Source: a virus | Virus record (IMG/VR): IMGVR_UViG_3300036402_000045 | Span: 1-64,000 of that record | Direction: 5' to 3' (one strand) | Length of the DNA stretch: 64,000 nt | Shown: positions 1,742 to 64,000 of the stretch, one piece after another | How the letters are laid out: every line of letters begins with the position of its first letter | Position numbering within the stretch: position 1 is the first letter of the stretch | Made by a program: the position numbers and the translations under genes | The notes under the pieces: generated by a model | What the model saw: only the letters and a program-made list of their open reading frames with translations | Database searches by the model: none | What the model was told of the DNA's origin: nothing

Positions 1742-3493
1742 CTATCGCTTCTTCTTGCTCCCGAAACCACGGGCAATGGCGACGCGACCCCTACCTTGGC
1801 CTGTTGACGCCATCGCGCGGGCCTTGGCTCCCATCGGAGGCCCTTGAGTGCCGCCACGTAGGTCAGGGTTGGACGAGAAGGCTCGCGGAGGGATGGCGAC
1901 CTTGTGCAGCCCCAGTCGCTCGATGAAGCCCGCAAAATGGCAGATCATCGCGTCGCAAAGGTGGTCGTTCTTCTTGACGATCCGACCACCCTGGTCCCGT
2001 CGCCAACCACGCACCTGCTCGATGAACTCAACGTGCTCAGCGGGGATGACGAGGTTCGAGCCATCGACGTAGATGTTCATCGCCGCAGCAGACGTTTCCT
2101 TGACTTCGGAAAAGTTCACGTCGTTGACCGGAAGGCGATGTACGTCCCGAAGCTCTTGGTTCAGGTAGTTGCCGCCGCCACCGATGTCGCAGTTCACGGC
2201 AACGAGATCCGACCGGTACCGAGTGGCGTAGCCGATGATCGAGCCGAACATGTCGGTACGGGTGTTCTCCGGAAGAAGATCGGCGTGCAGGAGGATCTGC
2301 TTGCGGCCCTGCTCCTGCCATACCTCCACGGCACCGTTCCCCGTACCCCAGTCCACGTCGATGTCGATCGGATTGTTCGGAACGTAGAGCGAGTCCGCTG
2401 CGGTGTTCACGATCGAGTCGTTGAAGCGGGTCATGTTCAACACGACGTAGCCCGAAGTCGAAGGCCGCTGACCCATCGCTTCGACTTCCCAGCGAGCATG
2501 GTTGCGGCGCATACGACGCCACAGCTTCTCGATCTCTTCCATCGGAACCCAGCCCTCGGCGTACATGGCCTTTCCGCCGCAGTAAGCCTTGTGGATCATC
2601 TTCTCTTCGGGAAGACCGGTTTCCGTATTGGTGATCGTCTCTACATGGTCCTCGCGGAAGCACGGCTCCGGGGACTGGCACACGTCCACGCATTCGCAGC
2701 CCGCACAGACATCGAAGGTGTCCCAGCGGTAGAGCGTGTAGCCCATCTCTTCATGGTTGTCGATCAGTTCAGCAAACGACCCCGCAACATTGTGAAACGT
2801 GGAGCAACGCACGTTGACAGACGGCATGGCGGTGTTGATCGTCGGAAGAGCGGCATCAACGATGTCCTTGTCAGCTTCCGCTTCCTCATCGATGACCAGC
2901 AAACCGCCACGGGTCTTGCCACGGCGCTTACCGCCAGCGTGGGGCGAGCGAACGGACTTGGACGACGCGGTGAGCACCCGAACCCACGAGTCTTCGATCG
3001 AGAACGTCTTCTCCCGCTGCGGGTCCGTCTTGAGAAGCGTCTTCCAGTACGGGTCGCTCTCGATGTAGCCGATGAGGTACTGGTACACGTTGTCGGCCTG
3101 AAGTTCCGAACCACCGAGATTCAGCGCGTCAAAATCAAGCACCAACCACAGGTAGAACTCCACGAAGGAGACTCCGTAGCTCTTGCCGCCGCCTCGGGAG
3201 GCCACCGCAGCAGCGTCTCGGACCCGCAGGGTGCATACGTCATCGATCATCTCCCGCAGACCTGGATGACGTTTTCCGAACTTCGCCTCAGCCTCTTCCT
3301 CGGTCAGAACACCAAGCTCGATCATCCGATCGACGGGCTTACGCGGAAGAAGCAGCCCAAAGCGATCCGCAAGCTCCAGCGGCTTCCCTTTGAACTGCTC
3401 CTTCAGATTCCTACCTGGATCACGCAGCGCACGGAGGAAGTCAGCAGCCGAGGCTCCTTCCAGAGTGTTGCGATTTCGCTGCGGTGCGGGCAT
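1742..3493 (-). CDS. terL: Terminase large subunit
   Basis: Walker A ASRGGGKS, Walker B LLVIDEE, nuclease motifs DVDWG and KNDHLCDA; 583 aa. Confidence 0.9.
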   Translation of the reverse strand: MPAPQRNRNTLEGASAADFLRALRDPGRNLKEQFKGKPLELADRFGLLLPRKPVDRMIELGVLTEEEAEAKFGKRHPGLREMIDDVCTLRVRDAAAVASRGGGKSYGVSFVEFYLWLVLDFDALNLGGSELQADNVYQYLIGYIESDPYWKTLLKTDPQREKTFSIEDSWVRVLTASSKSVRSPHAGGKRRGKTRGGLLVIDEEAEADKDIVDAALPTINTAMPSVNVRCSTFHNVAGSFAELIDNHEEMGYTLYRWDTFDVCAGCECVDVCQSPEPCFREDHVETITNTETGLPEEKMIHKAYCGGKAMYAEGWVPMEEIEKLWRRMRRNHARWEVEAMGQRPSTSGYVVLNMTRFNDSIVNTAADSLYVPNNPIDIDVDWGTGNGAVEVWQEQGRKQILLHADLLPENTRTDMFGSIIGYATRYRSDLVAVNCDIGGGGNYLNQELRDVHRLPVNDVNFSEVKETSAAAMNIYVDGSNLVIPAEHVEFIEQVRGWRRDQGGRIVKKNDHLCDAMICHFAGFIERLGLHKVAIPPRAFSSNPDLRGGTQGPPMGAKARAMASTGQGRGRVAIARGFGSKKKR

Positions 3494-3522
3494 GACGCCA
3501 GAGAGTAGCGCCCTATAGCCGC

Positions 3523-3672
3523 TTAGTCGTCCTGCATGTTCCTCTGGACGTACTTGCGCTGTCTTGCCTTCTGAACCCGGTCCCGGCGCTCCTGAGCGGC
3601 CTCAGGTGTCTCTGGAGGCAGAACAGCATCGATCTCGGCAAGCACTTGATCGAGTGTGCGGTGATCCGTCAT
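3523..3672 (-). CDS. Hypothetical protein (49 aa)
   Basis: MTDHRTLDQVL..., GGAG RBS, fills gap. Confidence 0.55.
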   Translation of the reverse strand: MTDHRTLDQVLAEIDAVLPPETPEAAQERRDRVQKARQRKYVQRNMQDD

Positions 3673-3698
3673 CTTGAATCTCCGTTTCGCATACCCGC

Positions 3699-3917
3699 CT
3701 ACTCGTCCGAGAGTAACCCTCGGTCCTTTGCGAGCTTGAGATTCGCCTTCTCGGTTGCGATCGGGTCGTAGTGGTAGCGGAGCGCGGGGAACGACATAAG
3801 CATGTAGACCACGACTCTGTTCTCAGGGTCTACAGGATTCGGAAATATCCGAACCGAGTCAGTCGCGGCAGGCTCAACACAACCATCGAGAGGCCCGCCA
3901 AAGAAGGTGACGCTCAC
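3699..3917 (-). CDS. Hypothetical protein
   Basis: GTG start in GTGA overlap; FFGGPLDG motif common in phage small proteins. Confidence 0.6.
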   Translation of the reverse strand: MSVTFFGGPLDGCVEPAATDSVRIFPNPVDPENRVVVYMLMSFPALRYHYDPIATEKANLKLAKDRGLLSDE

Positions 3918-4162
3918 TTCTTGTGCTTCTTTGATTCCATGCACCAGTTCTCGAAGTCTTCCGAATTCGGATCTGCACGTACGTAGATGCCTGAGAACGT
4001 CATGGAACCGCACTTGCAGCATTGCTCCCACCGACAAGCTTCGTGCTTGAGTCGGGTCGGTTGACGAACCGACGTTCCTGCATCAGTCACGACGCTGTTG
4101 GACTCGAACCAGCAATCGTCACAGACCGGATGAGTCCATCGAGACTCGGGGTGGGCGCTCAC
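3914..4162 (-). CDS. Small Cys-rich hypothetical protein
   Basis: CxxC pairs; coupled overlaps. Confidence 0.6.
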   Translation of the reverse strand: MSAHPESRWTHPVCDDCWFESNSVVTDAGTSVRQPTRLKHEACRWEQCCKCGSMTFSGIYVRADPNSEDFENWCMESKKHKK

Positions 4163-8772: not shown

Positions 8773-9066
8773 CTATTCCTTCCACCGGTACAGCATCTTG
8801 GCGGCGTGACCGTGCTTCCACCGCTCCGGGCACTCACCACGATCGCGCACCAACCAGAGCCGTTCCCTCGCCAGATCGCCTTCGGACCACCAGATGCGGA
8901 GATAGCCGGGGATGGACGCCCACCATCTGCTCGCATCGGCGTCTGAGAGCGTCTGTAGGGTCCGGTAAACGTCGTGGTCGCAAAACCACCCGTCCTGCAT
9001 CGCAGCGGCCTTCAGAACCATCCTGCGGCGTTCCGCTTCCATCTCTACATTCCGAAGGAAGATCAC
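8773..9066 (-). CDS. Hypothetical protein
   Basis: ORF track, overlap. Confidence 0.5.
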   Translation of the reverse strand: MIFLRNVEMEAERRRMVLKAAAMQDGWFCDHDVYRTLQTLSDADASRWWASIPGYLRIWWSEGDLARERLWLVRDRGECPERWKHGHAAKMLYRWKE

Positions 9067-9419
9067 GCGCAGATCAGCTTTCCGGTCACAGACGACACCG
9101 TGAGCGAGTCACCAACTTTGCACCGCTCGCCCATTGTCATGCGACAGATGCCGTAGCTCTTTTCGTTATGGAAGATGTTGCGAATCTTTCCTTCGACAAG
9201 ATCGACTTCCACAACCTGTTCCGGAAAGAAGTTTCCGGTGGCAGTTCCAACAACGCGAGACGGCTCGGGAATCTCTTCGTAGTAGCCAGCCTGAACGAGC
9301 GAACTCAGGTACACCGTTCCGAGGCAGACATCACCGTCGTAGATCTCAAAAGTGCTCCTATTCGCCTCCATTCGAATTTCGAACGGAAAGATTCTGTCGG
9401 TAGTGCGGTAGCGAGGCAT
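9063..9419 (-). CDS. Hypothetical protein
   Basis: ORF track, overlap. Confidence 0.55.
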   Translation of the reverse strand: MPRYRTTDRIFPFEIRMEANRSTFEIYDGDVCLGTVYLSSLVQAGYYEEIPEPSRVVGTATGNFFPEQVVEVDLVEGKIRNIFHNEKSYGICRMTMGERCKVGDSLTVSSVTGKLICA

Positions 9420-9586
9420 CACTTCTCCACCGAAACGGTCCAGCCCGAGATCTGCGTCTCCCGAAGGAGCGCACGGTCGATGGCTTCCTTTATGACCCGC
9501 TCGATGTGAGCATCCTGATCGAGTCGTTCCGTGGGTGTGGAGCCTCGCATCTCAGGACGCCAACGCAGCTTCAGTGTGAACTCCAT
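9419..9586 (-). CDS. Hypothetical protein (55 aa)
   Basis: MEFTLKLRW..., TGATG couplings on both sides. Confidence 0.5.
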   Translation of the reverse strand: MEFTLKLRWRPEMRGSTPTERLDQDAHIERVIKEAIDRALLRETQISGWTVSVEK

Positions 9587-9765
9587 CAGAGCTTCCCCGT
9601 TCCGATCGCAAGCAGCCCAAGGATAAGCAGCGCATCAAGGATCAACTGCGCCAGCAGCGTTCCGGGGTCGGTGGGCTTCCGAATCTTTCCCACCATCAGA
9701 ACCGCAGCAATCGCATTAGCTATCCAAAGCACCAGAACGACGTAGCCAAACCATGTAAGTCCCAT
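9586..9765 (-). CDS. Small membrane protein (leaderless)
   Basis: Two hydrophobic helices; CGTATCA at 9773-9779. Confidence 0.6.
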   Translation of the reverse strand: MGLTWFGYVVLVLWIANAIAAVLMVGKIRKPTDPGTLLAQLILDALLILGLLAIGTGKL

Positions 9766-9975
9766 ATCACGGTGATACGTGAAGTTGGCACTTCCGACAC
9801 CGCACGTCGCCATAGAAGTCCTTGTACGTGGCGTGAGAGCCGTCCCAAGCCAGATGACCGCTCTCGCAACGACATGTTTGGGCGCTGTGCAAAGCCTTCC
9901 TGACTTCGTGCTGCCATTGCAGCGAAGGCGACCAGTACCGACGCCACCGCATCCGTAGTCGTTTTGCGAATCGCA

Positions 9976-10188
9976 TTACAGCGCGTGTGGATGCGTGTTG
10001 AGCCATACGTCGATGAGCCGATCGATCGAAGTGAGATGGTGCTGCACCTGATGTTCTGCCATGTTTCGGATTTCTGTGTCCGAAAGCATCGGGTCCACTT
10101 TGTACGTGAGATCGCCAAGCGCTTCTCGTAACTCATGAAGCGCCACTCTCGCTCGATGCCCTCGCTTCTGTTGCTCGTTGTTGTCCAT
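9976..10188 (-). CDS. Hypothetical protein (leaderless)
   Basis: MDNNEQ; CGTATCA at 10195-10201. Confidence 0.55.
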   Translation of the reverse strand: MDNNEQQKRGHRARVALHELREALGDLTYKVDPMLSDTEIRNMAEHQVQHHLTSIDRLIDVWLNTHPHAL

Positions 10189-10324
10189 GCCCCGTGATAC
10201 GCATTTTCGGATATCGCCCCGCACCGCTCCAGCGTGTACCGCCAGTGATACAAGCGCCCATACACATGAACATTCCGAAGCGCAACAGCATTGCGCCTCT
10301 GGCTCCTTTTTGAGTTTAGAAACC

Positions 10325-10388
10325 CGCCTATAGGTAGCGCCCTATAGGTAGTCGCCTATGCGTAGCGCACTATACATACATCGCTATG
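10325..10388. repeat. Degenerate 13-14 bp tandem repeat (CGCC(C)TATAGGTAG) built on TAG-N4-CTA
   Basis: cgcctataggtag / cgccctataggtag / tcgcctatgcgtag / cgcactatacatac. Confidence 0.65.
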
Positions 10389-10493
10389 TCAGTCGCCATT
10401 GAACCTGCAAACGAGATAAGCGAGCGCAAACGCCAATGAGCCGATACCGACGTAAAGCGCCAATACGATTGCGATGATTTGCAGAACGATCAT
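10389..10493 (-). CDS. Small hydrophobic peptide (leaderless)
   Basis: MIVLQIIAIVLALY...; CGTATCA at 10500-10506. Confidence 0.45.
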   Translation of the reverse strand: MIVLQIIAIVLALYVGIGSLAFALAYLVCRFNGD

Positions 10494-10619
10494 GCGTATT
10501 GATACGTAAAGCGCAAAACATTCTGAACTCGTACGAACGATTGCATTCTCAAACTCATTACGCATGACGCCTCGATACGCATTACGCAACGCATTCGCAC
10601 ACGCAATGCAAAACGTCAC

Positions 10620-11480
10620 AGAACGATGCGCTTCAGAACGTTTCCGATCATCCCTATATGTACCTATGCGTGCACTCCGAATGGTCCTACCGACAGCCGA
10701 AAAAATGACTAGCCACTTTCGCCTAGCGCTAATGGGTGACTTCAGAATGATCCGAACTAACTAGGCATAGCTAGGTATGTATAGGTGGCTATAGGAATGG
10801 GTGAAAGCCTTATGCCGTATGGGTTTGAGCGTTCACTAACGACGGTGCCGAGGGATAAGCGGTAGGGCATAGGTGCGTATTGAGGGTAGACGAAAACGGA
10901 TTAGGGGAAACGGAATGGAATGTTCGGAAAGCAATAGACCAGAGGAATAGGCGTAGTAGGTAGCAGGGTAGGTAATGGTCATTCCCTTTCCCCTCTCGCT
11001 TTAGGCTCGAACGTAGCTAGTAGGCGTACGTATGTAGGGGGTTCGAGCGCTCCAGTACGTGACAGGAACGAGGGTAGGTAGGCGTCAAGTGTTCCGGGGT
11101 TGTGCTCCAGGGAGACGCACCTAGCGCTAGGGGTTCCCCTAAGTTCGGAAACCGTCGATGTGGCGTAGTTAGGGTCCGAACCTCGTTTCAGAGTCTTAGA
11201 CGAGGTTCTAGGGGGTTCTCAGAGGCTTCTGACAGGTAGTGGCGTATACGTATGTAGCTATGGGGTTCCGAACCTTGTCCGGAGCTAGTACGTAGAAGAA
11301 CCCCGGAATGGGGGTTCCGGGGTTCTCCAGTAGGGGTTATGGGTTCGAGCGCTCCAGCTAGCGCTAGGGGGTTCTCCAGCTAGAGCAGGAGGGTAGGCAG
11401 GTACGTGACAACGGATAGGCAGAAGAGCGTTAGGACGAGGACGGCTAGCCAGTAATCCGCCATCGTCGGCGCGGGGTTCC
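10620..11480. repeat. Non-coding region with dispersed short repeats (GGGGTTC, GTTCGAGCGCTCCAG, CTAG-rich)
   Basis: No credible ORF; repeats at 11041/11343 and 11204 shared with 13186/13327. Confidence 0.6.
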
Positions 11481-12902
11481 TCATGCTCGAACCTCATGAG
11501 CGTTACCGCCGAATGAGACGCTTTCCGTTCCCTTACACGTTGCCTCGTCCGCAATGAGGTATCCGTGTCCACCGTTGACGTACTGGGGGTCAAGCTCCAG
11601 CGCGATTTTGCGATACGTGCGACCTGTCAGGAAAGCGAGAATCCGAACCGCCGCGTATCCCTCCAGTTCGCCATATCCGTTGTAGACGAGAAAGCCGCGG
11701 GCGTTGTCGATATCGCCGGAAGGCTTGAGATTCTCGTCTAGGGGTTGAATCCATGCGCGCCCATTCGGACGGTCGGAATCGGAATCATCGGAATCGTAGG
11801 TCCGGATTGCGATTCCGCCCCAGTTCTTTAGAGCACACTTCGAAACCGCGTAGCCACCGGACGAGAACCAACAGGAATCGGAATGGTAGAAAGCGTCCGC
11901 GGACTGATTGAGATCACGCGTTAGCTCAATCCGAAACTCATTCTGCTTCGAAGTGTGCTGCGATGCGAGGTTACCGATTTCGGAAAGAACGTTCGCCGGA
12001 ATCTTGCATCGCAAGTCACGGTAGAAAGTCTTCGAAATCCGCTTAGTGAAGTTTCCTGCTTTGGTCTGCCACGTCGGGTCAAGTTCGCGGACAACGCGGC
12101 GGATATCCCAGCTATCTAGGACCCATTCGGTATCGGTAGCGTGCAGCCGCGCTCCGATCAGGAGGGTAACGATTGCGTCGATTCCCTCATTCGAAATGGC
12201 GCCGGAGGGAAGTTCCACCGTAAGCCTTTCGTCCGGACCCAAAGTGTCCGCGCCATTCGGAAAGCGGAATCGGAGGTTCGGCGCGACGCAATCGCAACCG
12301 GAATGATCGTGATCGGAGGAATTGTCATAGTGGTAATACTCTTCGCACGTATCGCAGTAGCCGAAATGGTAATCGATGCACGTTTCGCAAACCTCGCGGT
12401 CGTCAACTTCGCGGAGATTGACGGTGCGACGGTTGCAGATATCGCATGACGAACAATCGCAGCATTGTTCGCAGTTTCCGCAGTTTCCGCAGTATCCCTC
12501 TTCCGACGAAACCATTTCGGAGCAGGAATTGCAGTAGAAACAATCGCAATGGTTTTCGCACGCTTGGCACGTTCCACAAAGGTTTTCGTGGAAGTCGTCG
12601 CACCGATAGCCGACACATTCGGAAAGGTGGCAGGGATAGAGGTTCCACCGGACGACCCGCGCGCCGTCGCGCCACTGGTCGCGGTATCCGTGCCGCGTAC
12701 GTGTCGTCACGTAACAACCGGCGGAAATCCGGAAATGCGATTCCGGATACGTGTCGTCGTCGCAATCGTCGCAGTAGTGAGAGGCAACCCCTAGAGCAAT
12801 GGGGGTTTGAGACGAGGGAACGAGGAACGTCCCGAAAACGTTTCGGTAGCCGCGGGAACCCCTAGCCGCGGGAAGTGTGTCGGTAGCTGAAGCTTCGAAC
12901 AT
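11481..12902 (-). CDS. Cys-rich multi-zinc-ribbon protein
   Basis: About 10 CxxC motifs in N-half, GAAAGG RBS, atypical codon usage. Confidence 0.75.
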   Translation of the reverse strand: MFEASATDTLPAARGSRGYRNVFGTFLVPSSQTPIALGVASHYCDDCDDDTYPESHFRISAGCYVTTRTRHGYRDQWRDGARVVRWNLYPCHLSECVGYRCDDFHENLCGTCQACENHCDCFYCNSCSEMVSSEEGYCGNCGNCEQCCDCSSCDICNRRTVNLREVDDREVCETCIDYHFGYCDTCEEYYHYDNSSDHDHSGCDCVAPNLRFRFPNGADTLGPDERLTVELPSGAISNEGIDAIVTLLIGARLHATDTEWVLDSWDIRRVVRELDPTWQTKAGNFTKRISKTFYRDLRCKIPANVLSEIGNLASQHTSKQNEFRIELTRDLNQSADAFYHSDSCWFSSGGYAVSKCALKNWGGIAIRTYDSDDSDSDRPNGRAWIQPLDENLKPSGDIDNARGFLVYNGYGELEGYAAVRILAFLTGRTYRKIALELDPQYVNGGHGYLIADEATCKGTESVSFGGNAHEVRA

Positions 12903-58684: not shown

Positions 58685-59177
58685 ACCCTCCTGGTGGTGG
58701 GTTGAAGGACTTCGGAAACTGTCCGGAGTGAAGGTCTGGTATCCGCTCTACTGCTCGAAGACCGAAGCGGGCGCGCAACAAATCCAGCGCATGTGTGCTG
58801 GCGAGGCGCGGCGTATGCGAGAGGGTTTAGCTACAACTAAAGACGCCTCCACCCTCAAGGGCTACAGGGAGTTCCGAGTCGTTCCCGATAGCGAACAGGG
58901 AGTTCGCTGTAGCGAATGCACGTCGAACTACCTCAAGCGCATCAAGCGAGACGGCAAGCGGCTGTGGAAGTGCCTGAACTGCGGCCATGTGTGGGAGCGG
59001 GAAGCCTTTACCGAGTTGGTGCATGACACCAAGACCGTTTCAAAGGCCCCTACAGGGCCTTCTAAGGCTTCGAACCGCCCTGCGAAGGGTGTTGACGCTG
59101 CGAGGCGTGCTTCCGGACGGGAGAAGAAGCCACAGAAGCCGGTCCGTTCCACCCGAAAGGGTCGGAAGATCCGCTAG
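58653..59177 (+). CDS. Basic Zn-ribbon protein (leaderless)
   Basis: CSEC...CLNCG; CGTATCA 58639-58645. Confidence 0.6.
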   Translation: MTKRRSRKKTEPSWWWVEGLRKLSGVKVWYPLYCSKTEAGAQQIQRMCAGEARRMREGLATTKDASTLKGYREFRVVPDSEQGVRCSECTSNYLKRIKRDGKRLWKCLNCGHVWEREAFTELVHDTKTVSKAPTGPSKASNRPAKGVDAARRASGREKKPQKPVRSTRKGRKIR

Positions 59178-59203
59178 AGCCTGACTCGGCTGGGCTGCTC
59201 GTC

Positions 59204-59353
59204 TCAAAGAGGTTCCCAGGCGTTTTCCGAAAGAAGCTGATCGTCAACCTCTTCCCAATCCTGCCCGTCGTAGTTCTCCAGGAACGCGAAGAAGCTCGCT
59301 GCCATGTCCACGATCCCGAGGGCACGAACAGCGAGCTTCTTCAGTTGACGCAC
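59204..59353 (-). CDS. Hypothetical protein
   Basis: VRQLKKLAV..., end of lysis operon. Confidence 0.4.
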   Translation of the reverse strand: MRQLKKLAVRALGIVDMAASFFAFLENYDGQDWEEVDDQLLSENAWEPL

Positions 59354-59358
59354 GAAGC

Positions 59359-59799
59359 TCAGACCTTGAAGACCTTCGCCATGACGAGGTACACGATGAT
59401 GGCGCAGGCAGTAGCGAGCAACGCCGTCTGCCAATCAAGATGACCGTCTTCGTTCGGAGTCTTCTTCCCGCGAACCGTGGCACCGGGAATCATCTTGAGA
59501 CGAGCCGGATCATCCGAAGGGCGCTTGGCCGAGAGGTAGTCGGCGGCGAGGCCAGCACCAGATCCAACGGACAAGCCGATGGCAATGAGGGAGTAGGCGT
59601 TCATCTTCGCCAGCGAGCCGCCGATGTCGATCTGCGAAGCGAAGTCGGTCTGTGCGTAGAGCACGACGGCGACAACGCCCGCAAGCCAAGCGGAGGCCGT
59701 GGTCACGATGCCGTTGATGTCGCGGTTCGTGAGGTACTTGGTGAAGTCGATCACCTTCTTCACCAACGCCAGCATTGCGAGTACGGGTACGAATTCCAT
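59359..59799 (-). CDS. Putative holin
   Basis: Several TM helices, AAGGAG RBS, lysis cassette. Confidence 0.6.
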   Translation of the reverse strand: MEFVPVLAMLALVKKVIDFTKYLTNRDINGIVTTASAWLAGVVAVVLYAQTDFASQIDIGGSLAKMNAYSLIAIGLSVGSGAGLAADYLSAKRPSDDPARLKMIPGATVRGKKTPNEDGHLDWQTALLATACAIIVYLVMAKVFKV

Positions 59800-59807
59800 T
59801 CTGCTCC

Positions 59808-60386
59808 TTACGGGTTGGTGGTGGTGGTCGTGGAAGGAACGACCGGTGCCGGAACACTTCGTACCTCTCGGCACGCGTCCCGAACCTCGGGGATCTGAAC
59901 ATTCGGAATCTGAGGACGGAGAGATTCGAGGACGATCCGATTGTTCTCTTCGGTCTTGCAATCCACGGCTTCGATGATCTGGTTCACAAGCAACTGAGTT
60001 GACGCCACCTGTGAAGCCGTGGCTTCAGGCCCCGTCACCTTCTGAAGAATCGCTAGCGAGGAAGCGGTGTTGTCGATCGCTGTGCGGTTGTCACGACTGA
60101 ACTGGCGCTGGTCCCAGTAAGCCAGTCCTGCGAGCACAAACGCCGCTGCGAAGACAACACATGCGAGCTTGAACCAACGACGGTCCCGCTCGCGTTCTTC
60201 ATCCCCCTGCTGAACCTTGATCGTCAGGGTCTTCGTTGCTACCGCCAGTTCCCCGACCTTCTCGGCCATCATCGTCATCGAGGCCGTGAGGCCAACCAGA
60301 AGATGAACTTTCAGAGTTTCCTCTGACTCCGATGGGAGTGACGGAGGCGTCTGAAACGCCGTCTGTTCGTCGTTCGGTCCTGTCAC
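59808..60386 (-). CDS. Membrane protein in lysis cassette
   Basis: Coiled coil, TM helix, extracytoplasmic domain with two Cys. Confidence 0.55.
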   Translation of the reverse strand: MTGPNDEQTAFQTPPSLPSESEETLKVHLLVGLTASMTMMAEKVGELAVATKTLTIKVQQGDEERERDRRWFKLACVVFAAAFVLAGLAYWDQRQFSRDNRTAIDNTASSLAILQKVTGPEATASQVASTQLLVNQIIEAVDCKTEENNRIVLESLRPQIPNVQIPEVRDACREVRSVPAPVVPSTTTTTNP

Positions 60387-60527
60387 GAAGTCGCTCTGCT
60401 TTCTCAGTCACGGATTGAGCAAGGAAGACGATCTCGGTCGTCAACTGATTGATGGCATCCACGATGGCGTCTGTGTCGTCGTCTACCGCAACCAAGTCTA
60501 CGACCTGCTTCCTTATAGACACGTATA

Positions 60528-60896
60528 TCACCCACCCCGTCGATGTTCAGAAGCGGCTTCTCGCTCAAGAGCGTCCAACCGATCGACCAGTCTGTCAAGT
60601 GCGGGCAGGATGACATCGTTGGTGTTTTGGAGCGCAAGCTGATATGCGGTAAGCGCCGGGAACACCTTCTCCATCATCAGAGTTTTTGACGCGGCCTCGG
60701 CATCGTCAGTCCTCTTGCGCTCAGCGTTGCGGTCTTCAATGGCTTGGTCGTAGAGCTTCCCGCGCACGACCTGACCAGTAAGCCAAGCGATGACGATCAG
60801 ACCCAGCAGCCCGTACTGCGCCCAACCCGGTAGGGGTTCGGCAACGCTTGGACCGTTAGCGGCCACCAGATAGCTGATCCCAGTCAGGAGGGTCAC
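60528..60896 (-). CDS. Membrane/coiled-coil lysis-associated protein
   Basis: QYGLLGLIVIAWL then coiled coil. Confidence 0.6.
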   Translation of the reverse strand: MTLLTGISYLVAANGPSVAEPLPGWAQYGLLGLIVIAWLTGQVVRGKLYDQAIEDRNAERKRTDDAEAASKTLMMEKVFPALTAYQLALQNTNDVILPALDRLVDRLDALEREAASEHRRGG

Positions 60897-61185
60897 CCCG
60901 ACGCTCCTTCCAAGTCCAGTTCTTCTCGGCGGGGGTCTTCGCTATGAAGACGAGAGCCAAGATGATTCCGCCGATGTTGAAAGCCGTGTATCGGGTGATG
61001 CCGTCTCCGATGTGATCGAGAGCATTCAGCCCTGCGGCGATGGCGAGCATCGCTGCGCTCAGGTGCAACCAAGCAGGTTCGGAAAATCTCTTGAGCCATC
61101 GTGCCGCTCTCCAGAACAGCACGAAAGCCGCCAAGACTCCCGCCACCGCTGTCATCACACGGGAGATGTCCAAGGCAAGCACCAC
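60856..61185 (-). CDS. Three-TM membrane protein (holin candidate)
   Basis: Three hydrophobic helices right after endolysin. Confidence 0.55.
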   Translation of the reverse strand: MVLALDISRVMTAVAGVLAAFVLFWRAARWLKRFSEPAWLHLSAAMLAIAAGLNALDHIGDGITRYTAFNIGGIILALVFIAKTPAEKNWTWKERRGDPPDWDQLSGGR

Positions 61186-61194
61186 CTTTGTCGG

Positions 61195-62151
61195 CTACTC
61201 CGTAACACTGACCTGCACATGGGCAGGCCATCCCGGTGCCCATCCTTCGACCGAGAGGATCGTCCCGTTGCTGCCGGGAAGGTCATCGGCAGCGAAGCCG
61301 AGCTTGGCGTTCTGGTACTTCTGGTCAGCCTCCGGGCGCAGGCCAGGTTCGAGAGCACCCTTGATCTGGGTCTTCGACCACGGAAGACGGACCCAACCGA
61401 ACCCGGCATAGGGACCGGAGCTTCCGGTTCCAACGATCACGTCGTAGGTGTTCAACTGCATGTCAATTTCCTCCGATGAGAGAAGCGTGAGCCACGCCGG
61501 GGGCGCGGGAGTTGGCGGCGTTGGTTCGGAAATCACCATGCCACCACGAACGAACTGCATTACTGCACCGCCAGGGCAAGCGGTCTGCTTCCAATCGGCA
61601 TGAACGTGCCGCTCGGTTCCGGAGCCGCGGGCCTCGTACCACTCGAAGACATTCCGAAGTCCACGTCGGGCATCCACAGTGAACTCATCGCCCTCGCCCA
61701 TCAAGACGCAATGGGCGTAGCTGCGATCGTTCCCGGTATTGGTGCCGTTGGCAGCCGTTCGCCATCCGTACCAGCGTCCTTCGAAGATGAACCCGTGACG
61801 GCAAGTGACATCGGAATATGCGATGTCATTCCAGCCCTGGTGCTCCATGTGGTACTTCTGAATTCCACGGAGCTTGGTGGCGCAGGACGTGTGCGGATAG
61901 TCCCCGAGGCCCGGACCTTCCCAGTGGGCCGTGTTGCCGCGTGCGGTCGTTAGACCGGTCCTGCCCGTTGCGGCCTTGGCTCCCCAAGAAACCCGAGGGA
62001 TGAACTTCGCAGGCGGCGGCGTTCCCTTGACGCTGAGGATGGCGTTCTGGAAAGGCGGGGACTCGATCTGGCCGACGTACTCCAGAACCTCGTAAAGCTC
62101 CAGGAGATCCGCAGGAACGGAAAGATGTTCTGCTTCGAGAAGCTCAGTCAA
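61195..62151 (-). CDS. Endolysin, N-acetylmuramoyl-L-alanine amidase (PGRP-like)
   Basis: RVSWGA, AHW, IQKYHM..GWNDIAY, EGR, HADW..TACPG. Confidence 0.88.
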   Translation of the reverse strand: MTELLEAEHLSVPADLLELYEVLEYVGQIESPPFQNAILSVKGTPPPAKFIPRVSWGAKAATGRTGLTTARGNTAHWEGPGLGDYPHTSCATKLRGIQKYHMEHQGWNDIAYSDVTCRHGFIFEGRWYGWRTAANGTNTGNDRSYAHCVLMGEGDEFTVDARRGLRNVFEWYEARGSGTERHVHADWKQTACPGGAVMQFVRGGMVISEPTPPTPAPPAWLTLLSSEEIDMQLNTYDVIVGTGSSGPYAGFGWVRLPWSKTQIKGALEPGLRPEADQKYQNAKLGFAADDLPGSNGTILSVEGWAPGWPAHVQVSVTE

Positions 62152-62926
62152 GGGGACTCCTGAATGCTTGGTAGAGCGTCGCGCCGAACTGCGGCGTCTG
62201 CGGATAGGACGGAGAAGGCAGCGCCAAACGGATGCGGCGATACCACTCGCGGAACGTCTTCACGTCAGGACCGAGAGCATCGATGGCCGCTCGGGTGAAG
62301 GCTCCGTTGGGACGATTTCCGAAGGAGGCGTCGTAGCTGTATTCCGGATCGTCGCAACCCGAGATCAGAACCGGACCGCTTCGACTCGTCGCCCGGATGA
62401 ACGTGCGCTCTGCGGCGATGGCAGCCTCGACGCTCACGGGAACCGAAGGGATCAAGCCGGGAGAGATGAACTTCGGCTTTCCGGGAGGGGGAGCAGACGC
62501 CATGATCCCTCGGGCCACGGTTCCGGAGTGGCAGGAATCCGAAAGAACCGTGATCTGCGTTCCGTGGCGAGCACGGCCAAAGATCGTGTGCATCTCGTCA
62601 TCGATGAGAAGGCCACCGCTGGCGTAGTCGTGACAGCACAGCGCTTCGTCACGACCATCCGGCTCGTCACCGTCGCCGTCCGGAACCCACGTCCCGTGAC
62701 CCGAGTAGCAGAACACGAACCGATCCCGGTACTTCATCGAATCCACGATGCCGAGAAGTTCAGCCACGATCCGGGCCTTGGTAGCCGAGGAATCCAGAAG
62801 CGTCGTGACGGTGTAGCCGCGCGACTGAAGAACCTGTGACCAGTCCATCGCATCGTTGATGCAACCGGAAAGATCTCCCGCTCCGGGGTAGTCGTTGATC
62901 CCTACGCACAAGGCAATACGTCGCAT
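62144..62926 (-). CDS. Metacaspase (peptidase C14)
   Basis: ALCVGINDY, LSGCINDA, YSGHG, DGDEPDGRDE, SDSCHSG, GAFT. Confidence 0.92.
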   Translation of the reverse strand: MRRIALCVGINDYPGAGDLSGCINDAMDWSQVLQSRGYTVTTLLDSSATKARIVAELLGIVDSMKYRDRFVFCYSGHGTWVPDGDGDEPDGRDEALCCHDYASGGLLIDDEMHTIFGRARHGTQITVLSDSCHSGTVARGIMASAPPPGKPKFISPGLIPSVPVSVEAAIAAERTFIRATSRSGPVLISGCDDPEYSYDASFGNRPNGAFTRAAIDALGPDVKTFREWYRRIRLALPSPSYPQTPQFGATLYQAFRSPLD

Positions 62927-63235
62927 CTACCCATTCTCCTTCGTGTCGGGCGCGGGTTGCGGAACTGCCCGCTCAGCCCGGAGACGCATCGTGGCCTGTT
63001 CCAGCGTTTCCTTCTCGACCAAGATCTCCGCTTCCTTCAGGAGATCGGGCTGGTCCTTCAGAATGTCAACCTGATCCTGACCGACCTTGTAGGAGCGCGA
63101 CTCGCCATTGGCAAGCTGCAACACGACAACGACATCACGAACTACTTCGGTTCGCTGAAGGTCTGGATGCCAGATGGTGATGCCCGCAGAAAGCGTGCGG
63201 GGGTCTTTCTGCACGACGGGCGGCTTCTTAGGCAT
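62927..63235 (-). CDS. Hypothetical protein
   Basis: ORF track. Confidence 0.55.
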   Translation of the reverse strand: MPKKPPVVQKDPRTLSAGITIWHPDLQRTEVVRDVVVVLQLANGESRSYKVGQDQVDILKDQPDLLKEAEILVEKETLEQATMRLRAERAVPQPAPDTKENG

Positions 63236-63509
63236 GACTGATCTTCTTTCCGGTGGTCTTGCGGGGCTTGGGGGTCGTTACCCGACCGTTGTGCTTCGGC
63301 CTGTCCTTCATCGCTGCTTCCAGAGCTTCGGTCAAGCTCACCTTCTCCTGCGAGATCTGCTCGATCACCGCATCGAGCACGGTGTTCTCTCGAAGAAGCT
63401 GTGCGTTCTTTCGCTCCAGCGCCCGGACATAGGCGTTGATGTCCAGATTGATTCCGCCCTCTGGAGCTTCGGGTACTTCGGGAACCTGCTTTTCCGGTTG
63501 CGGCGTCAT
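63228..63509 (-). CDS. Coiled-coil hypothetical protein
   Basis: AAGGAG RBS. Confidence 0.6.
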   Translation of the reverse strand: MTPQPEKQVPEVPEAPEGGINLDINAYVRALERKNAQLLRENTVLDAVIEQISQEKVSLTEALEAAMKDRPKHNGRVTTPKPRKTTGKKISHA

Positions 63510-63537
63510 GCGCTCTTCTCCTTGTCTTGGTCGGCCA

Positions 63538-64000
63538 TCAGGCTGCCTTCTTCTTCAGAGCATCAACTTCTTCGGAAAGCTCTCGAACCGCCTGCCACAA
63601 GATAGCGAGTACGCCGAGAGGCTGGACACCCTTGGTTTCGAAGACTTCCTTGTCGTTGGTGTTGCTCTTCAGCATCGTCCGGTGGACAACTTCAGGAGGC
63701 AGGGTCGTTGCGTCGAATCCGAAATTGTCTCGATCGGAATCCGAGTTTTCACCCGGACGCCACTTGAACTTGATGGGGGTGATGGCCTTCACCTTGTCAA
63801 GCTGTCGTCCCGCAGAAGCCTTCAGTGGCTCGATGTTTCGCTTCAGCCGCGGATCGGATTGATCCACATGCACACCGGCATGAGAGTTGCGCCAAGCGGT
63901 TGACGCTTGGTTGACGTGGCGAGCGGCACCGACACCGAAGCCGTCGTGGTAGCGCCCAGCCTCGATGGAAACGTCCCATGCAGCAGACGTGATGGCGGTG
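63538..64000 (-). CDS. Tail fibre C-terminus with intramolecular chaperone (peptidase S74), partial
   Basis: Frame open to window end; SDPRLKRNI, LWQAVRELSEEVDALK. Confidence 0.8.
   Translation of the reverse strand, partial: TAITSAAWDVSIEAGRYHDGFGVGAARHVNQASTAWRNSHAGVHVDQSDPRLKRNIEPLKASAGRQLDKVKAITPIKFKWRPGENSDSDRDNFGFDATTLPPEVVHRTMLKSNTNDKEVFETKGVQPLGVLAILWQAVRELSEEVDALKKKAA

Follow-up and report, generated by a model that had tools for sequence, protein, structure and literature searches.

Metacaspases cleave after Arg or Lys, and bacterial operons that combine a gasdermin with a caspase-like protease were reportedly described by Johnson and colleagues in 2022. In mycobacteriophage Ms6, Gp1 is encoded by a small gene that lies immediately upstream of, and overlaps, the gene for the PGRP-type amidase endolysin LysA; Gp1 binds the N-terminal region of LysA and affects its stability and export (PMC3111421). 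The locus analysed here lies in positions 1 to 64,000 of IMG/VR virus record IMGVR_UViG_3300036402_000045, a stretch of 64,000 nucleotides called the window below. It contains a gene for a stand-alone metacaspase-like protease of the Peptidase_C14 family (C14), which overlaps the start of a gene for a PGRP-type amidase endolysin with an acidic N-terminal module. We hold with moderate confidence that C14 is a lineage-specific accessory late protease, whose target would be other than, or not limited to, the endolysin, and that it stands beside an endolysin carrying a fused Gp1-like partner module.

The locus shares with Ms6 the arrangement of a small gene and an amidase gene: in 11 relatives of the window endolysin the module is encoded directly upstream of the amidase, and in the window it is fused to it. 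Ms6 differs in that an internal start gives it a second, shorter endolysin, and the window gene contains no such codon; Ms6 also has no C14 protease, and the window module is a short acidic helix motif in fused form. The likeness of the module to Gp1 (Pham1480) is one of gene layout. The gasdermin operons follow the same proposed logic, in which a caspase-family protease is encoded beside a lytic effector with an inhibitory extension that the protease removes. However, the effector in the window is an amidase and not a pore former, its extension is N-terminal and a separate gene in most relatives, and the protease and the extension co-occurred in 0 of 13 relatives. Yeast Yca1 (4f6o), GSU0716 (3bij) and T. 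brucei MCA2 (4afr) have the same SGHG His, DSCHSG Cys and acidic D-x-D-E-x-D-x-x-D-E residues as the window C14, and GSU0716 is likewise a single chain (285 aa against about 260 aa). Compared with type I metacaspases and orthocaspase-like enzymes, the window C14 lacks an N-terminal prodomain, belongs to a phage late operon and overlaps an endolysin gene. An uncharacterised bacterial cassette, in which C14 is followed by a giant protein with CHAT, DUF7379 (lipase-like) and TPR-S domains, uses a C14 of the window's family at 44-51% identity; the window has no giant CHAT gene, and its C14 falls in a phage-context clade. Holin-endolysin cassettes of Streptomyces and Thermobifida actinophages likewise close the late operon with an amidase endolysin gene and, after it, genes for small membrane proteins. 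The module of the window, by contrast, matched none of 50,697 GenBank phage records, and C14 matched one, an uncultured 485-kb phage at 31% identity. No cultured GenBank phage had a close C14 homologue. Full-text literature searches turned up no report of a phage lysis cassette with a caspase-family protease; one bioRxiv preprint (10.1101/2023.05.30.542743) mentions a CHAT-domain annotation elsewhere in a mycobacteriophage genome.

The C14 product matched PF00656 over residues 2-253 with an E-value of 6.8e-24 (85.3 bits against a cut-off of 21.4), and its 260-aa translation includes FCYSGHGTW, PDGDGDEPDGRDEAL and LSDSCHSGT. His77 in SGHG and Cys132 in DSCHSG form the predicted catalytic dyad. 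H77, C132, D130 and the acidic residues of DGDExDGRDE were invariant in 27 homologues, showing that the acidic DGDEPDGRDE stretch is a family feature. D130, the Asp two residues before the catalytic Cys, presumably has a role in the S1 pocket. All 53 columns that were invariant among these homologues were kept in the window protein, which was itself the reference of the alignment. The C14 family profile matched GSU0716, the closest solved structure, at E 8.9e-43 and Yca1 at E 4e-39; SGHG and DSCHSG were aligned in the latter match, and the aligned Yca1 motifs were YSGHG, DGDEEDGMDD and DSCHSG. No transmembrane segment was found in the 260 residues by a Kyte-Doolittle scan, and the protein has no signal peptide. 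The PADLOC 'caspase' model matched at E 1.6e-13, and the nearest relative was 76% identical. Its motifs and conservation mark the phage C14 as an intact and predicted active protease, probably accessory, from a clade of stand-alone metacaspase-like enzymes that is carried by phages.

The C14 and endolysin genes share 8 nt (62144-62151) as a TTGACTGA overlap. Both a Shine-Dalgarno (SD)-like AGGAG (62161-62157) and the TTG start of the endolysin (62151-62149) lie inside the last C14 codons, separated by 5 nt (TCCCC). No in-frame ATG, GTG or TTG was found in endolysin codons 2-64, and the first residues (MTTELLDLEH...) aligned with those of homologues. The upstream TTG start is well supported by these features, and on the same three grounds (AGGAG before TTG, no in-frame start in codons 2-64 and the N-terminal alignment) the idea that a misassigned start had created the extension was rejected. 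Because the window endolysin has no internal start codon, a short form of the amidase would be produced only by proteolysis.

The 318-aa endolysin matched PHROG 1493 'endolysin' at E 4.9e-18 and also PHROG 822 amidase, and it matched no Pfam family at E <= 0.01, including Amidase_2 (PF01510). A precomputed PF01510 match was present in 5 of the 52 endolysin homologues listed. The endolysin family profile matched PGRP 4zxm (E 1.5e-22) and T7 lysozyme 1lba (E 7.8e-07). Residues H76, H184 and C192 were invariant in 50 homologues and aligned with H...HRD...TACPG of 4zxm; we take them to be candidate zinc ligands, by the assignment in T7 lysozyme and PGRPs. The family is, judged from these profiles, a divergent branch of PGRP/Amidase_2. 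The C-terminal part was alignable only with P0122, P0123 and P0128, the other homologues having PG_binding_1 in that place; no Pfam match was obtained for the C-terminal region and no ESM Atlas match for residues 225-318. The C-terminal domain is presumed to be wall-binding, and its last ~85 residues (61195-61455), family-less and common only to the closest homologues, may be a new wall-binding domain. The original prediction, made from the sequence of the window, had described an intact C14 protease with the SGHG and DSCHSG dyad and an acidic loop, overlapping by 8 nt the start of a PGRP-type amidase with an acidic N-terminal extension that is not a signal peptide. Each of these statements was borne out: by PF00656 and the residues invariant in 27 homologues for the protease, by the shared positions 62144-62151, by PHROG 1493 and the family profile for the amidase, and, for the extension, by the supported TTG start, the lack of a hydrophobic stretch and the homologue alignment. 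The downstream start that it had named as a refuting finding was not seen, given the SD-like site before TTG, codons 2-64 and the N-terminal alignment.

The extension has two parts that differ in conservation. Across the closest homologues, the module motif H-x-VP-x-DLLELYEVLE[WY] was sharply conserved, and the linker that follows varied in both length and sequence. In the window the extension ends ...SVKGTPPPAKFIPR, and no hydrophobic stretch was detected in it by the Kyte-Doolittle scan. The motif pattern was present in 19 of 50 endolysin homologues, and the remaining ones begin directly at the catalytic domain. When a small motif hidden Markov model (HMM) was run on the region upstream of the catalytic domain in the 161 surveyed loci with an endolysin-family match, 14 were positive, namely the window and 13 others, all from the IMG/VR set of 80. 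The module was fused to the amidase, as in the window, in only two of the 13 (L002 and L014). In the other 11 (L003, L004, L006, L011, L019, L021, L022, L028, L029, L035 and L043) it was a separate small open reading frame (ORF) that overlaps or abuts the PGRP-type amidase gene. The end of this ORF coincides with the beginning of the amidase ORF; the two are read in different frames, except in L029, where an in-frame stop divides them. The split amidase genes start at a position matching K47/F48 of the window; in L006, for example, the small ORF ends ...QKEADS and the amidase begins VKFVTREQWGARPP, which corresponds to window K47-F48.

Neither the small ORFs nor window residues 1-50 matched a Pfam or PHROG family or a GenBank phage record. 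By these comparisons the extension corresponds to a small acidic helix protein, encoded by its own gene in most relatives and joined to the amidase in the window. A gene that stands alone in most genomes but is fused in some is a classical indication that the two products act together; on this pattern the recurrent small module gene points to an unannotated endolysin partner, and the module would physically partner the amidase. A homologue search with endolysin residues 1-50 returned only the query (2 candidates), and the best ESM Atlas score for residues 1-47 was 0.76, under the usable level. When the 50-residue module was compared by phmmer with 1.84 billion representatives, three proteins matched: the truncated close endolysin P0173, P0122 and P0174; the last (653 aa) is repetitive and probably a spurious module match, and the search is uninformative on how widespread the module is. 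The linker Lys of PPPAK-FIPR (K47) was not kept in the two closest homologues (PPAL-FIPR in P0122 and PPPN-FIPR in P0173). A basic residue was present about 9-10 positions before FIPR in all three closest proteins (SVK-G in the window, QSR-G in P0122 and IIR-T in P0173).

Co-occurrence of the two genes was surveyed in five locus sets with 8-kb flanks where the contig allowed, comprising 376 loci and the window (377 in total). The sets were the best 80 of 200 confirmed endolysin relatives in IMG/VR, the best 80 of 209 in GTDB, 56 C14 loci in IMG/VR, the best 80 of at least 489 confirmed C14 relatives in metagenomes and the best 80 of 341 in GTDB. The IMG/VR relatives were found with alignment-based scans; single-protein scans of IMG/VR with C14 or the endolysin gave no relatives. 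Both family HMMs were run on six-frame ORFs of at least 50 aa at E <= 1e-3, the C14 HMM representing this subfamily, so that CHAT, C11 and C13 caspase-like families in the flanks would escape it. An endolysin match was obtained in 161 of the 377 loci and a C14 match in 217. The only locus with both families was L001, which is the genome of the window itself. No C14 match was obtained in any of the 13 module-bearing IMG/VR relatives, with 5.2-8 kb of upstream flank in each, and none of the 216 other C14 loci had the window's endolysin family nearby. The presence of the module in 13 relatives without C14 in their flanks indicates that the extension is independent of the protease. The expectations in the original prediction that the C14-endolysin pairing is conserved and that the extension accompanies the protease were for the most part not upheld by these counts (one of 377 loci, with two database relatives possibly added by the identical contig sizes described below, and 0 of 13). 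Its proposal that the protease removes an inhibitory pro-peptide fared no better: relatives with no C14 at all possess the extension as a family module, be it fused or split, which leaves the pro-peptide poorly supported, and K47 is not kept. A general link between this C14 subfamily and phage lysis genes was also rejected, with only one lysis PHROG match among 143 ORFs lying within 2 kb of C14 in 26 IMG/VR loci; no PHROG family recurred more than twice among them. Of the 42 immediate downstream neighbours of C14, 8 had a Kyte-Doolittle transmembrane segment.

The closest relatives of the window C14 gave a different picture of the pairing. In a FastTree of 226 C14 rows, from which rows with fewer than 200 aligned C14 profile positions were excluded, the window grouped with P0002, P0004, P0012, P0003 and P0008 in a 6-row subclade with a Shimodaira-Hasegawa-like (SH-like) value of 95. 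P0008 (C14, 67-68% identity) and the endolysin P0131 each come from a single Logan contig of 41,039 nt, and P0003 (C14, 70-71% identity) and the endolysin P0135 each come from a single Logan contig of 8,169 nt. Judged by the identical contig sizes alone, P0008/P0131 and P0003/P0135 apparently share a contig each. The two lists hold about 39 x 25 pairs of contigs of at least 8 kb, for which well below 0.1 exact coincidences would be expected by chance (a rough estimate, not a computed statistic), so exact coincidence by chance is very unlikely and both pairs were read as lying on the same contig. P0131 and P0135, with an identity of only about 40% to the window endolysin, both bear the module in fused form. 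P0002, P0004 and P0012 are on contigs shorter than 2 kb. The next C14 relatives on long contigs (P0007, 28,818 nt; P0009, 25,870 nt; P0013, 53,913 nt; P0017, 64,221 nt) had no contig size in common with the 52 endolysin homologues listed. Likewise, no contig size in common with the 120 C14 homologues listed was found for the fused-module homologues P0123 (24 kb), P0124 (42 kb), P0127 (46 kb), P0128 (84 kb), P0133 (30 kb), P0142 (37 kb) and P0146 (43 kb).

The C14 family as a whole is widely distributed, with 4,643 proteins at E <= 0.001 among 5,776 candidates, and GTDB loci in many bacterial phyla carry it at 44-51% identity to the window protein. The window C14 is one of 31 rows of a clade with an SH-like value of 95, to which the phage-context loci L082, L086, L103, L138, L139 and L141 also belong. 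All catalytic residues persist in clade members at 50-60% identity, which lie beside unrelated genes; the C14 neighbours in other phages include genes for a DNA polymerase exonuclease, RNase E, a tail-fibre assembly protein, a DNA methyltransferase and RNA polymerase subunits. Of the fetched loci, the two nearest to the window, L138 (57%) and L139 (56%), lie outside lysis cassettes; 57% is the best identity among the metagenome C14 loci fetched, the closest JGI relative, P0013 (62%, 53.9-kb contig), being outside that set. In L138, C14 has a glycosyltransferase gene upstream and a gene for a small membrane protein downstream. In L139, a WhiB-like gene (220-783) lies upstream and a collagen-like fibre gene with GPQGPAGP repeats (2317-3012) downstream; this gene arrangement on a phage-like metagenome contig points to actinobacterial hosts for the C14 clade. 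On the short viral contig of L085, a portal protein with a C-terminal ADP-ribosyltransferase-toxin-like domain (2083-4161) is encoded directly upstream of C14. Tandem Peptidase_C14 genes occur in L107 (8004-8771 and 8813-9574) and likewise in L108, on viral contigs of 36.9 and 529.7 kb, respectively.

In bacterial genomes, a giant gene was found just downstream of C14 in 26 of the 80 GTDB loci (median +38 nt). The giant of L309 (8820-14891, 2024 aa) has CHAT, three DUF7379, TPR-S and LCAT-like domains. Among 136 C14 loci from IMG/VR and metagenomes, 12 showed a similar pairing, including L158, where the ORF at 8841-11990 matched CHAT and Peptidase_C11 in Pfam; the window locus is outside that cluster. 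The recurrence in many bacteria of C14 followed within a few dozen bases by a protein of 1000-2000 aa describes an uncharacterised two-protease cassette. In 13-17 GTDB loci, nearly all from Dactylosporangium, C14 was near ABC-transporter genes, and about 13 of these also had a gene for an MbnB/TglH-type enzyme of ribosomally synthesised and post-translationally modified peptides; the neighbour domains were read in Pfam for L301 and L300 only. The chromosomal place of C14 in Dactylosporangium is conserved, near genes for an MbnB/TglH/ChrH-type enzyme and ABC transporters (L301, 5884-6981 and 10094-12145, with about 12-16 similar loci), and C14 could be a leader-peptide protease there. These bacterial contexts suggest that C14 is a small processing protease acting on the product of a neighbour.

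Taken into the life cycle of the phage, the accessory-protease reading runs as follows. C14 sits at the junction of tail-fibre and lysis genes in this phage and apparently in two or three of its nearest relatives, translationally coupled to the endolysin. It points the same way as the structural and lysis genes, uninterrupted by gaps or terminators, and its co-expression with the lysis genes is probably real on this gene layout. The protease would be made late, together with the lysis proteins, and would stay in the cytoplasm, having no export signal. It would cleave after Arg or Lys in a host or phage protein, not specifically in the endolysin, and may help host shutdown, lysis or late counter-defence instead of being a required endolysin activator. 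The module would hold, stabilise or deliver the amidase in the manner of the chaperone-like Gp1 of Ms6. The lack of co-occurrence argues for a target other than the endolysin. Several points weigh against this account. The non-endolysin target is drawn from missing co-occurrence and is not an observation, and the contact between module and amidase is a candidate one. All three subclade members on contigs of at least 8 kb (the window, P0003 and P0008) are apparently paired with a fused-module endolysin, so that the pairing may have been selected in the window's lineage. A short amidase would need proteolysis, the window gene having no internal start, and in 26 of 80 GTDB loci C14 lies directly upstream of a likely substrate-like CHAT/DUF7379/TPR-S giant of about 2000 aa. 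The same observations are what a protease-gated endolysin would draw on, in which C14 cuts the linker after a basic residue, recreates the two-piece state and releases or activates the amidase at lysis. We consider such gating fairly unlikely. In its fullest form, the metacaspase would have been recruited in this lineage as a dedicated endolysin maturation enzyme and a cut at the old gene boundary would time lysis, making a zymogen-type, caspase-gated endolysin; this version we regard as unlikely. Gating predicts cleavage within residues 27-52, at the gene-boundary position of the relatives, and the split-gene boundary does coincide with K47/F48. The 8-nt overlap with SD-like site and start inside C14, the lack of a start in codons 2-64 by which a short form could be re-initiated, the basic residue about 9-10 positions before FIPR in the three closest proteins, and the fused-module endolysins that the three long-contig subclade members seem to carry on the same contig all fit it as well. 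However, none of the 13 module-bearing IMG/VR relatives has C14, even where the module is fused (L002 and L014), and fused-module homologues on long contigs share no contig size with the 120 C14 homologues listed. K47 is absent in P0122 and P0173, linkers of homologues without C14 also contain basic residues, clade members at 50-60% identity keep their catalytic residues next to unrelated genes, and for P0003 and P0008 the contig sizes suggest a shared contig, not adjacency of C14 and endolysin. Because the bacterial contexts of C14, where it often precedes a probable substrate-like giant, suggest processing of a neighbour, the gating idea was not dismissed.

A role outside lysis was also weighed. 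C14 could interfere with a caspase-type suicide or defence system of the host, either by triggering a CHAT-giant effector that helps to breach the envelope or by acting as a late decoy or competitor that dampens an abortive-infection response, which we judge quite improbable. The giants downstream of C14 in 26 of 80 GTDB loci (median +38 nt, as in L309), the similar pairing in 12 of 136 IMG/VR and metagenome loci (as in L158, with CHAT and Peptidase_C11) and the PADLOC 'caspase' match (E 1.6e-13) are consistent with it, as are the known caspase-like effectors of bacterial immunity, such as that of type IV Thoeris. Most giant-linked rows, however, are placed apart from the phage-context clade of the window C14, and expression from the late operon is late for counter-defence. 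A defence gene expressed from a prophage is disfavoured, since neither an integrase nor a resolvase was found in the record, which is 88% complete by estimate. C14 might alternatively be a passenger, a recently acquired or decaying host-derived gene without a role in a permissive tail/lysis site. Its position varies between phages, and the tail-fibre/lysis junction commonly hosts accessory genes. We find this very improbable, as the frame is intact with all 53 invariant columns kept, the protein is 76% identical to its nearest relative and surrounded by a phage-context clade, and the gene is tightly packed, with the upstream stop abutting its ATG and the downstream start inside it. The accessory late protease beside a fused-module endolysin is the reading preferred here, and the features of the locus are collected with their neighbours in Table 1.

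Table 1. Features of the C14-endolysin locus and its surroundings (window positions unless a locus is named).
Feature	Position	Strand	Basis or remark
Stand-alone metacaspase-like Peptidase_C14 gene, 260 aa	62144..62926	-	ORF list, PF00656
PGRP-type amidase endolysin, 318 aa, TTG start	61195..62151	-	ORF list, PHROG 1493
Translational-coupling joint	62144..62161	-	Sequence and ORF coordinates
Endolysin residues 1-26, acidic module, motif H-x-VP-x-DLLELYEVLEY	62074..62151	-	Homologue alignment
Endolysin residues 27-47, variable Pro-rich linker VGQIESPPFQNAILSVKGTPPPAK	62011..62073	-	Alignment
PGRP / Amidase_2-type N-acetylmuramoyl-L-alanine amidase domain, residues 48-205	61537..62010	-	
Pro-rich linker, then C-terminal domain without known family, residues 206-318 and stop	61195..61536	-	
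Small acidic module ORFs	L003:7661-7981; L006:7328-7528; L043:7844-8017; L029:7274-7540		Plus 7 further IMG/VR loci
Tail-fibre gene, 3' part with Peptidase_S74 intramolecular-chaperone domain	63538..64000	-	PF13884 E 2.5e-07; tail-fibre PHROGs
Two small ORFs (102 aa, 93 aa), function not assigned, between tail fibre and C14	62927..63509	-	ORF list
Holin-like small membrane protein, 109 aa, 9 nt 3' of endolysin stop	60856..61185	-	Two Kyte-Doolittle segments
122-aa protein, one weakly hydrophobic segment, charged helical tail; candidate second lysis-cassette protein	60528..60896	-	
Two overlapping ORFs with transmembrane segments, end of minus-strand late operon	59808-60386 (1 segment), 59359-59961 (2 segments)	-	

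The window is the first 64 kb of a record of 89,782 bases with an estimated completeness of 88%, in which no integrase or resolvase was found. A soil metagenome (one DNA run) was the only sequencing run with the record and is probably its source; no RNA run containing it was listed. In the full record, the minus-strand late operon spans 89723 to 59359. It begins with a giant fibre gene, followed by head and tail genes that include a tape-measure-sized ORF of 1373 aa and then by the tail-fibre gene, whose full ORF (63538-65862) encodes 774 aa. The Peptidase_S74 tail-fibre gene marks the end of the structural module. After it come two small ORFs, the C14 gene, the endolysin gene and four ORFs, three of them with transmembrane segments. 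No significant Pfam or PHROG family was found for the 102-aa and 93-aa ORFs, and the stop of the former directly abuts the C14 ATG. Transmembrane calls were made by Kyte-Doolittle scan, with a threshold of 1.6 for 60856-61185. The genes downstream of the endolysin had been described as holin-like; three of the ORFs have transmembrane segments, and no holin family match was obtained in Pfam or PHROG for 60856-61185, 59808-60386 or 59359-59961. The 60528..60896 product had no segment over the Kyte-Doolittle threshold and matched PHROG 4565, for which no function is known, weakly at E 3.8e-4. No intrinsic-terminator-like site was detected when the minus strand was scanned from 59000 to 64000.

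Megablast of 59300-64000 against GenBank phages gave no match. At the protein level, the endolysin catalytic domain was 30-37% identical to annotated endolysins in 20 Streptomyces and 2 Thermobifida phage records, and the endolysin relatives in GTDB genomes were mostly from Actinomycetota. These two results make an actinobacterial host likely.

As far as the searches reach, there is no earlier description of the stand-alone metacaspase-like protease clade found here in uncultured phages, which probably infect Actinomycetota, nor of the endolysin module. In one small lineage C14 is apparently locked onto the endolysin gene. If the gating explanation were true, this would be the first protease-gated endolysin. 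The module may govern the timing or location of PGRP-type amidase action and would in that case bear on lysis in Actinomycetota and on endolysin engineering. Knowledge of the C14 substrate would reveal how a bacterial virus makes use of a caspase-type protease.

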